From: a virus
Lineage: Duplodnaviria; Caudoviricetes
Virus record (IMG/VR): IMGVR_UViG_3300032295_001534
Coordinates: 1-25,488 of that record
Strand: one strand, 5' to 3'
Length of the DNA stretch: 25,488 nt
The notes beneath the pieces were generated by a model. The model did no database searches. It saw nothing but the letters and a program-made list of their open reading frames with translations, and was not told the DNA's origin. Below are positions 17,166 through 19,411 of the stretch, piece after piece. The position numbers and the translations under genes are program-made. Within the stretch, counting starts at the first letter, position 1. The number at the start of each line of letters is the position of its first letter.

Positions 17166-17807
17166 ATGGAGCGTCAAATTTTACAAGTATTGGAATTCCA
17201 GAAGGCATTTAATGTCAGTATGCCATCTGAGCCAAAGATGTTACCTAGAAAAAGAGCAAAACTACGTCAGTCATTGCTCCAGGAAGAGGTAACTGAATTA
17301 GCAGAAGCAAAGAATTTACTCGATGTTGCAGATGCAATCTGTGATATCCTGTACATCACCTATGGTACGGCACATGAATATGGTCTTGCTGATCGTCTAG
17401 TAATGTTGTTTGACGAGGTTCACCGATCAAATATGTCTAAGATGGGACCTGATGGTAAGCCTTTATTCCGTGAAGATGGCAAGGTAATGAAGCCTGAGAC
17501 ATACTCAGAGCCTAAACTACGACCTATCATCGAAAGAAACTTCTCCGTATATAAAGAAAGCAAAGCAATGAAAGATGCTGCTGAAATTATGGAGGCGATT
17601 GCTAATGAGGAAAAGAACCTCTTAAATGATCGAATAGAGAACAAGTTAAGGAAACACCTTACTTTATGGGATAAGTTCCTGTATTGGCTCTTAAATAAGG
17701 CTGAGAACAATCTTAAGACTAAGATCGAGGTTAAGTATCCACAGTCTATCTATGGCGAAGTAGTAGTCAATATTTATGGCAAAGATTACCCAATCCAAAA
17801 CGTCTAA
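17166..17807 (+). CDS. MazG-like NTP pyrophosphohydrolase (dUTPase/PRA-PH-like)
   Basis: LLQEEVTEL, VADAICDILY, EVHRSNMSK, REDGKVMKP. Confidence 0.9.
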   Translation: MERQILQVLEFQKAFNVSMPSEPKMLPRKRAKLRQSLLQEEVTELAEAKNLLDVADAICDILYITYGTAHEYGLADRLVMLFDEVHRSNMSKMGPDGKPLFREDGKVMKPETYSEPKLRPIIERNFSVYKESKAMKDAAEIMEAIANEEKNLLNDRIENKLRKHLTLWDKFLYWLLNKAENNLKTKIEVKYPQSIYGEVVVNIYGKDYPIQNV

Positions 17808-18613: not shown

Positions 18614-18985
18614 ATGCAAGAGAAATCGCTGCACAACACCACTGCAAATGGTGCAAAAAAGAATGTTAAAGACATTCAATTTTGGGGAGACGGAGACACT
18701 TTCCGTTTAATTTCTAAAGCTTCATCTGAGGCAGAGGGATGGATGAAATCAACTAAGGCTATGCCGGTAGGCAACTCAGTTGTTATTCAGGTAACAACGC
18801 AACAGCGCAATCCTGATGGAAGCTATTCAGTTGCTGAGGCACTAACAACAGTTGATAATGTTATCATCTGCGAGTACAAAGTTGGCGACACTGTAGAGGC
18901 AAGAACTATTATCCCAAGAACTCAGGAGCATGAGGGAGTTCACGTCACAGCAGTTAGAAACGTAGCTTTAGAAACAGCTGAGTAA
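18614..18985 (+). CDS. Hypothetical phage protein
   Basis: 123 aa; GWMKSTKAM, VIQVTTQQ. Confidence 0.8.
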   Translation: MQEKSLHNTTANGAKKNVKDIQFWGDGDTFRLISKASSEAEGWMKSTKAMPVGNSVVIQVTTQQRNPDGSYSVAEALTTVDNVIICEYKVGDTVEARTIIPRTQEHEGVHVTAVRNVALETAE

Positions 18986-19083
18986 AGCTTGCCACTGACG
19001 AGTGGAACGTAACCTGCCGGTCTTAATTGCTCGCGGTTCTCATCGTAGGGAGATAGGTTAGCCTTCCGAGGAAAAAGGCACAT

Positions 19084-19209
19084 AGTCAGGTGGCGGAATT
19101 GGTAGACGCAAAAAAACTGTAATGAGGTATGTCCAATCCTCACATTAAACAAAAAGGGTTACAACGCAGAAGTGCGGAAGCGGTACAGGTTCGAATCCTG
19201 TCCTGACTG
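19084..19209 (+). ncRNA. tRNA-like RNA 1 (class II-type D arm, no canonical anticodon arm)
   Basis: Acceptor AGTCAGG/CCTGACT, D arm GCGGAATTGGTAGACGC, T arm ACAGG-TTCGAAT-CCTGT; 75-nt middle. Confidence 0.75.
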
Positions 19210-19256: not shown

Positions 19257-19411
19257 CACGGAGTGGCGGAAAGCAATTGGATACTGTTCAGTTGTGGGGA
19301 GACGCTAGTACTTGAAAATGCAATAGAATAGGGTATCAGCTGTAACCGCCTATTGAGCAGAAGTAGAAACAAGGGATAAGCTCCATGCAGGTTCGAGCCC
19401 TGCCTCCGTGG
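19257..19411 (+). ncRNA. tRNA-like RNA 2 (hairpin in D loop, expanded middle)
   Basis: Acceptor CACGGAG/CTCCGTG, GCGGAAA...GGGGAGACGC, T arm GCAGG-TTCGAGC-CCTGC; 81-nt middle. Confidence 0.7.

Follow-up and report, generated by a model that had tools for sequence, protein, structure and literature searches.

The closest described systems to the RNA gene analysed here (E1, a tRNA-like shell that carries a middle part which we call the cargo) are RNA1 and RNA2 of phage T5 (AY543070, 30501-30644 and 32959-33083, respectively), which like E1 are phage-encoded and which are annotated as 'tRNA-like stable RNA with unknown functions'. RNA1 shares with E1 an acceptor-like stem, an almost identical D loop and a T arm, and where a tRNA has its anticodon arm, RNA1 too has a long folded middle. 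The middles of both T5 RNAs differ from that of E1 (our cargo model R1 had no match in the T5 region, L451) and they lie in a tRNA cluster, whereas E1 lies among small accessory genes behind a sponge gene; the T5 record, with which the comparison was by annotation and sequence only, mentions no cargo swapping and no shell-less form. A looser kin is species 1 RNA of phage T4 (rnaC; AF158101, 70908-71046), also a small stable phage RNA with a T arm and an acceptor-like strand at its end and no anticodon arm; it differs from E1 in lacking the Leu-type D arm and in having an unrelated middle. The tRNA-like shell architecture is known from T5 RNA1, and what appears to be new here is the cargo module, its swapping among shells and its shell-less form.

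The arrangement also resembles the engineered 'tRNA scaffold' for recombinant RNA, in which a cargo replaces the anticodon arm and host enzymes process and stabilise the product; E1 would be a natural, evolving version of it with interchangeable cargos. A further likeness is to the 'enigmatic' tRNA introns of Lak megaphages, i.e. over-long phage tRNA-like genes with conserved inserts (10.1101/356790, in its accessible part). Unlike in those genes, no excision of an E1-type insert gives a tRNA and the insert also occurs without a tRNA; an overlap of the cargo with the Lak Tyr(GTA) insert is possible. A catalogue of viral structured RNAs (PMC10690425, in the part available) names five tRNA-like candidates and holds 8,495 unnamed models; a motif search in three of its six supplementary files did not find the cargo, which may be among the unnamed models. 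We found no publication that describes the shell family, the cargo or the shell-less form.

Anatomy and setting of the locus

The stretch of DNA analysed (the window) comprises all 25,488 bases of an IMG/VR virus record; its completeness is estimated at 16%, and besides the features of Table 1 it encodes DnaB, SSB, an Erf-like protein, a MazG-like protein, an endolysin and a holin. The MazG-like nucleotide pyrophosphohydrolase gene (17166-17807, + strand) lies three genes 5' of the Lockin gene and may join a counter-defence module.

Table 1. Features of the E1 locus (window positions)
Feature	Position	Strand	Basis
Predicted Lockin-family immune-signal sponge gene (123 aa), directly upstream	18614..18985	+	phmmer, ESM Atlas
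U0, conserved element, putatively structured, between Lockin stop and shell	18992..19079	+	5' pattern matches; fold inferred
E1, whole tRNA-shaped RNA gene (shell and cargo)	19084..19209	+	sequence; Rfam tRNA score
E1 shell, 5' half: acceptor strand 19084-19090, Leu-type D arm 19091-19109	19084..19109	+	sequence, D-stem covariation
E1 cargo module	19110..19184	+	74-variant alignment, covariation, model R1
Cargo, A-rich lead (A7)	19110-19116	+	
Cargo, CUGUAA hexamer	19117-19122	+	
Cargo, P1 (5-bp hairpin)	19123-19127 / 19138-19142	+	
Cargo, pseudoknot of the P1 loop	19132-19134 with 19156-19158	+	covariation
Cargo, A-rich strand	19143-19155	+	
Cargo, P3 hairpin	19165-19176	+	
Cargo, linker	19177-19184	+	
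E1 shell, 3' half: T arm 19185-19201, acceptor strand 19202-19208, discriminator G19209	19185..19209	+	sequence; T-stem variants
E2, a further tRNA-shaped RNA; its conserved cargo is a different one and its D-loop hairpin is optional	19257..19411	+	T-/D-arm scan of window

The 7-bp acceptor (7/7 Watson-Crick pairs, U3-A70 among them), the Leu-type D arm, which has the U8, A14 and G18G19 features of tRNAs, the perfect T arm (5/5 pairs), the A7 run and both hairpins of the middle are all found where the original prediction had placed them. The A7 run comes directly after the D arm and there is no 5-bp/7-nt anticodon arm. That no canonical cloverleaf is present was also borne out: ARAGORN called 0 genes in the window, and the Rfam tRNA model (RF00005) matched E1 with 36.6 bits (gathering threshold 29, E 1.9e-4) around an insert of 68 nt, a match that is more than chance. 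As a decoding tRNA, E1 was rejected, since it has the acceptor, D and T features and fails on the anticodon arm. The discriminator (G73) is followed by CAA. The missing CCA, although indeed absent, turned out to carry no information, as among ordinary tRNAs called by ARAGORN in the loci fetched for comparison (see below) CCA was encoded in 15 of 91 and absent in the other 76. The folding energy of E1 (z = -1.08) is not significant by itself, so that the case for its structure rests on covariation.

Several other RNA classes were considered and rejected. tmRNA has a G3-U70 acceptor pair and a tag reading frame and is detected by ARAGORN and Rfam; the window has U3-A70 and neither program made a tmRNA call. 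Type III antitoxins are tandem pseudoknot repeats beside a toxin gene or match a ToxI model of Rfam; the cargo is present as a single copy in each record searched, no ToxI-type Rfam match was found and there was no such toxin family among 104 genes adjacent to cargo-family elements, which speaks against an antitoxin or a mimic of one. Bacterial Y RNAs of the YrlA type have a permuted order of arms and an adjacent Ro60 gene; the order in E1 is normal and no Ro60 was found among the 104 neighbours. Likenesses to pistol, hatchet, hairpin and twister ribozymes, to tmRNA pk1 and to ToxI were dropped, as there was no Rfam signal for them.

Three features of the locus were absent from the original prediction: the upstream Lockin gene, U0 and E2. 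U0 is predicted to consist of a hairpin, a multi-stem domain and a terminal hairpin that ends 4 nt 5' of E1; its 5' pattern recurs in eight viral contigs, in some of them away from Lockin, it has no Rfam match and its folding z is 0.94. By eye, 4 nt in the loop of its first hairpin are complementary to a downstream loop, a possible kissing loop. The cargo pattern of E2, which neither ARAGORN nor Rfam detected, was found in six viral contigs, one of which carries it on another acceptor stem and five of which lack the D-loop hairpin. The cargos of E2 and E1 have in common an A-rich/UGY start and the word GCAGAAGU, and an internal loop of E2 is possibly loop-E-like, as judged by eye.

As regards the host, DNA near-identical to the window was found chiefly in freshwater sequencing runs, and tblastn with its DnaB and annealing protein gave no informative match. 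The homologous loci point to Bacteroidota as the host group, through their neighbour genes, among them PF21825 ('crAss001_48') and one with a type IX secretion signal domain, and through the motif TAnnTTTG, which we take to be the Bacteroidota promoter element and which stands a few bases 5' of several cargo-family elements (observed without a chance control). Scans for sigma-70 promoters and terminators gave matches at chance level only.

A conserved cargo and its shells

Pattern scans for the cargo in phage and metagenome contigs gave 98 distinct rows, of which 21 were dropped as chance (fewer than four P1 pairs) and three as cut off or duplicate, leaving 74 distinct versions. In the alignment of these, 93.4% of the cells are paired (98.6% in P1, 92.3% in the two core pseudoknot pairs and 100% in P3), and sliding the partners lowers the pairing to 27-44%. 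Two-sided changes were found in 79 cells against 12.9 +/- 3.1 in shuffles, a comparison that ignores relatedness. With a slightly wider pattern, nine fully Watson-Crick variants of P1 were seen, and with the wider pattern the pseudoknot pairs are formed in 65 of 73 members against 42.6 +/- 2.3 in shuffled sets, again with relatedness ignored; counted over distinct types they are formed in 20 of 26, a value reached by 0 of 2000 shuffles, against 8.6 +/- 2.1 in the shuffled sets. On E1 itself, model R1 scores 93.8 bits at 19110-19182.

The first patterns had fixed conserved words, and a second scan was run without the 5' hexamer as a criterion. It gave 62 distinct rows, 28 of which passed the stem filter, and after removal of one chance match and one that was cut off, 26 members remained, with CUGUAA in 23, CUGUAC in two and CUGCAA in one. 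Support is weak for three base pairs between the hexamer and the strand that precedes P3 (76.6% paired, no two-sided changes). We observed that conserved bases lie in loops and junctions and that the variable ones are the paired ones and covary. For this reason we read the cargo as a folded binding surface and not as a guide RNA, which had been among the earlier suggestions. The CGCA-GAAG-TGCG hairpin had been regarded as resembling a variable arm; it lies 8 nt from the T stem and is also present in copies without tRNA arms, which contradicts that view.

Searches outside these contigs yielded little. When the region, E1 and the cargo were compared by BLAST with 50,697 annotated phage records, only short matches to tRNA arms were obtained and none of full length; a shell-less copy of the cargo is present in one unannotated gut phage record. 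An exact-pattern scan of 185,579 prokaryote genomes gave three matches and no clear member, model R1 with strict filters (run without a positive control) found none in 151 genomes from the same phylum as the Bacteroidetes bin G001, and on 98 other shell loci it found no additional cargo. A short contig of a Syntrophothermus bin has a cargo-like match of 33.6 bits with broken stems (L178:777-845, - strand). In the window and in 20 member loci, tRNA was the only Rfam family that matched at these places, and the cargo family is absent from Rfam.

The shell was searched for independently, with a pattern made of the E1-type D arm, 58-88 free bases and the T loop. From 13 of 64 parts scanned we estimate about 620 viral stretches with this pattern, of which 120 were fetched. 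Although pairing is no part of the pattern, 103 of the 120 have an acceptor with at least 6/7 pairs and a T stem with at least 4/5. Between them these 103 have 61 acceptor sequences, and their middles, 82 of them distinct, fall into 69 BLAST clusters; the acceptor type of E1 alone holds 20 of these clusters, and only three of the 82 middles contain a structure like an anticodon arm. A minority of the matches are other things, for instance a span over two tRNAs or Leu(UAA) genes with a short insert; L004:1501-1618 and L080:1501-1611 are tRNA-Leu(UAA)-like with an insert of 40-55 nt in the anticodon loop, far below the length of a group I intron. A short recurring element with a GGAAAGAC core stands directly 5' of many shells (L372:2370-2990, L461, L123, L129 and L165).

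Among homologs detected by their cargo, the shell is maintained. The acceptor has at least 6/7 pairs in 52 of 55, with about 25 different sequences, and is damaged in the other three; D stems are full in 43 of 47 and covary over five sequence types; and the 15:48 contact is A15:U48 in 46 of 47, with C48 in all three D arms of the G15 type. Hairpin insertions in the D loop are tolerated. These observations sustain the earlier proposal of a selected tRNA elbow that carries a cargo. At the ends, U is found at -1 in 40 of 53 shells and in 55 of 91 ordinary tRNAs of the fetched loci, and 22 of 53 shells end in CAA, which is also the commonest ending of these ordinary tRNAs (33/91). The discriminator is A73 in 37 of 53 shells.

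Another finding was that the cargo is bound to no particular shell. Of its 74 versions, 56 have a T arm, i.e. they lie in tRNA shells with many acceptor stems, and 18 do not; most of these 18 are closed by a long plain helix, for instance in gut phage contigs of about 97 kb, near a terminase gene, and in lake phages. In L299, L312 and L337 the acceptor-like stem is kept and both the D and the T arm are gone. A tRNA gene lies within 290 nt of seven of 17 shell-less copies versus seven of 49 copies in shells. In L209, L293, L315, L318, L262 (L365) and L162, the shell-less cargo lies near a CUA-anticodon tRNA and a tRNA-Met or tRNA-Thr, which suggests that these are stop-codon-recoded phages.

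Conversely, one slot accepts different RNAs. Three relatives whose Lockin is 94-97% identical retain U0 and the flank downstream and have other tRNA-shaped RNAs in the E1 slot, and one of them keeps E2 without its D-loop hairpin; in other contigs U0 is followed directly by E2, by another shell or by no shell. The slot is bridged by 69 and 192 other letters in contigs of runs X17 and X2, respectively. Contigs of the RNA library X19 span parts of relatives of U0, E1 and E2, although contigs cannot show transcription, ends or level. Because the same cargo is found on many shells and on plain helices, and because relatives refill the slot with other tRNA-shaped RNAs, the shell is the carrier and the cargo the conserved function. 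The expectation of a hypervariable middle holds for the slot, which varies between close relatives, and fails for the cargo itself, which is not hypervariable junk but a conserved module found across unrelated phages.

Neighbouring sponge genes

The product of the ORF upstream of U0 matched Lockin in PDB entry 9p8l (phmmer, E 6.6e-26 over residues 1-83) and, in the ESM Atlas, PF26760 Lockin (score 0.91), and from its sequence it is a predicted sponge of Thoeris signals. According to the accessible part of 10.1101/2025.07.12.664507, Lockin, Sequestin (PF21825) and Acb2/Tad1 all are proteins that act as sponges for nucleotide signals of immunity, and the Lockin family binds 3'cADPR or His-ADPR and blocks Thoeris. 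Relatives of Lockin are encoded by 500 viral stretches. Lockin is no fixed partner of the cargo family: it is found in one of 77 cargo-family loci, and shells were seen near about five of 80 Lockin loci (three by pattern, two by eye).

For sponge genes as a group an association was found. Pfam sponge families matched five of the 104 ORFs adjacent to cargo-family elements (four PF21825 Sequestin and one Acb2/Tad1, the Lockin of the window not being counted) versus none of 197 non-adjacent ORFs of the same loci, the latter being 150 sampled from 168 distant ORFs plus all 47 nearer ones (Fisher p 0.005; 0.013 after merging two related loci). For shells with other cargos the numbers were two of 114 adjacent versus one of 150 ORFs (150 of 172 used), which is not significant (p 0.58), and with both groups pooled p was 0.006. 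The remaining 99 of the 104 adjacent ORFs matched no known sponge family, and among the 104 neighbours there was no common downstream gene and no fixed gene neighbour. We regard the adjacency as modest evidence, no more than guilt by association at an accessory hot spot; strongly expressed accessory spots may simply attract both sponge genes and non-coding RNAs. Two further loci may be mentioned. In L064:1636-2090, Tad2-like and Acb2/Tad1 genes stand in tandem directly 5' of a shell with an unrelated cargo, and in L006:1987-3015 a gene with a Ro60 vWA domain stands directly 5' of a long tRNA-like element, an unrelated shell.

Candidate functions of the cargo

We propose that E1 is a tRNA-shell carrier of a conserved cargo that is excised by the tRNA enzymes of the host, and that the cargo binds a target in the host, most likely a component of its defence. 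To this reading as a whole we assign a probability of roughly 45%; that E1 is a carrier with a cargo is, taken alone, very probable. By analogy with established tRNA biology, RNase P would cut the 5' end of E1 from the phage transcript, a 3' nuclease would trim after the discriminator and the CCA-adding enzyme would complete the end, as for the ordinary CCA-less tRNAs of these phages. The same cuts would also release U0 and E2, and processing would give an abundant and stable carrier RNA; in the shell-less form, a plain helix close to tRNA genes would take over the task of the shell. The cargo would then act in trans as a compact binding surface for a protein or a small nucleotide ligand, and its target would be a defence component, an idea that receives indirect support from the neighbouring sponge genes. 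For phage RNAs in counter-defence there is a precedent, unrelated in form (10.64898/2026.06.01.729453, as far as accessible).

A bolder version, which we consider rather speculative, is that phages run a natural tRNA-scaffold expression system that carries exchangeable RNA effectors and in which the cargo is an RNA sponge of an immune nucleotide signal or jams a defence protein. As a sponge, the cargo would be an aptamer with a riboswitch-like pseudoknot pocket, i.e. an RNA counterpart of Lockin, Sequestin, Acb2 and Tad1.

The same carrier and cargo could, with a lower probability than a defence target but as a serious contender, address the translation or RNA machinery of the host (the ribosome, a tRNA-modifying enzyme, a nuclease or an RNA chaperone) and favour phage expression. 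The cargo family has no fixed gene neighbour; copies without a shell are found within tRNA clusters, where in several phages from gut and lake their neighbours are a tRNA with a CUA anticodon and a tRNA-Met; and the hexamer CUGUAA is identical to positions 32-37 of a tRNA-Tyr(GUA) loop. Such a mimicry is weakened by the one member with CUGCAA and the two with CUGUAC and by the lack of an anticodon stem framing the hexamer, and the enrichment of sponge genes beside cargo-family elements speaks against a target in translation.

That the tRNA shape itself is the function, with the cargo secondary, is unlikely; the shape would then be a decoy for defence toxins that cut or modify tRNAs, a sponge for a synthetase, or a processing signal by which the Lockin mRNA is released. 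The elbow and acceptor are strictly maintained and shells carry at least 69 kinds of middle; A73, frequent in the shells, and the Leu-type D arm could suit LeuRS; and nucleases of Septu and retron systems that cleave the variable loop are countered by a phage tRNA-Tyr (PMC13096335, in its accessible part). The copy in the window, however, has G73, and conservation of the cargo equals that of the shell and extends to the 18 versions without tRNA arms. Decoy and punctuation are disfavoured because neither would need the cargo, and the decoy or synthetase sponge of the original prediction is thus disfavoured as the main function.

It is improbable that the cargo is a cis-acting switch or ribozyme, i.e. 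a preQ1-I-like aptamer or a self-cleaving RNA that governs downstream genes. The cargo may fold like the preQ1-I riboswitch, with which it shares a small H-type pseudoknot, a 5-bp P1 closed by G-C, a first loop that starts with U and an A-rich third loop or strand (PMC11625349, in the part available). Nevertheless, it is not a member of that family: RF00522 did not match E1, no Rfam riboswitch or other family besides tRNA was found on the 20 member loci, and the cargo has an extra 5' hexamer and 3' hairpin and is not the leader of queuosine-pathway genes. The specificity cytosine (AC or UC) that, in the same source, precedes the 3' strand of P1 is missing, as the loop ends in AC in 14 of 77 cargos and in AU in the window. 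CUGY at the hexamer can pair with GCRG, the first strand of P3, in all of 76 cores. This pairing would compete with P3 and is a hint of two alternative states; nearest-neighbour energies, on the other hand, prefer the P3 state in 71 of 71 cores. The cargo moreover is enclosed in a shell or helix and, as noted, has no common downstream gene.

Still less credible is an intron-bearing tRNA that is spliced into a decoding tRNA. In the accessible part of 10.1101/356790 long pseudo-tRNAs of Lak phages, one of them Tyr(GTA), are read in this way, the cargo starts with a Tyr-like loop sequence, and the long shells L004 and L080 resemble Leu(UAA) with a short insert. A single excision, however, restored a 5-bp/7-nt arm in none of 50 members, the intron mode of ARAGORN called 12 of 55 with mixed isotypes among the matches listed, and the module occurs outside any tRNA. 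In RNA-library contigs (four libraries, each searched in small share) no long-sided joint marked a clean removal; the joints seen over the middle have short sides or intervening letters and are present in DNA runs too, for which reason we attribute them to other members of the family and not to splicing.

A decayed tRNA pseudogene or attachment-site remnant, for which one could cite the failure of ARAGORN, the folding z of -1.08 and the three damaged acceptors among 55 homologs, is refuted by compensatory changes in every stem of shell and cargo over dozens of unrelated contigs, as the original argument against random decay had anticipated from the intact elbow.

For the 'tRNA-like stable RNAs' that were annotated without a function in T5 and T4, the E1 locus identifies shells of this kind as carriers. 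The same cargo moves from shell to shell and to plain helices, many cargos can occupy a single slot, and hundreds of phage contigs hold such shells, unseen by ARAGORN. The 74-member covarying motif, absent from Rfam and located beside immune-signal sponge genes, is a candidate both for an RNA counter-defence of a new kind and for a new ligand- or protein-binding fold. If the cargo is indeed an RNA sponge, the other cargos, dozens of them, would amount to a collection of RNA counter-defences that has yet to be read.
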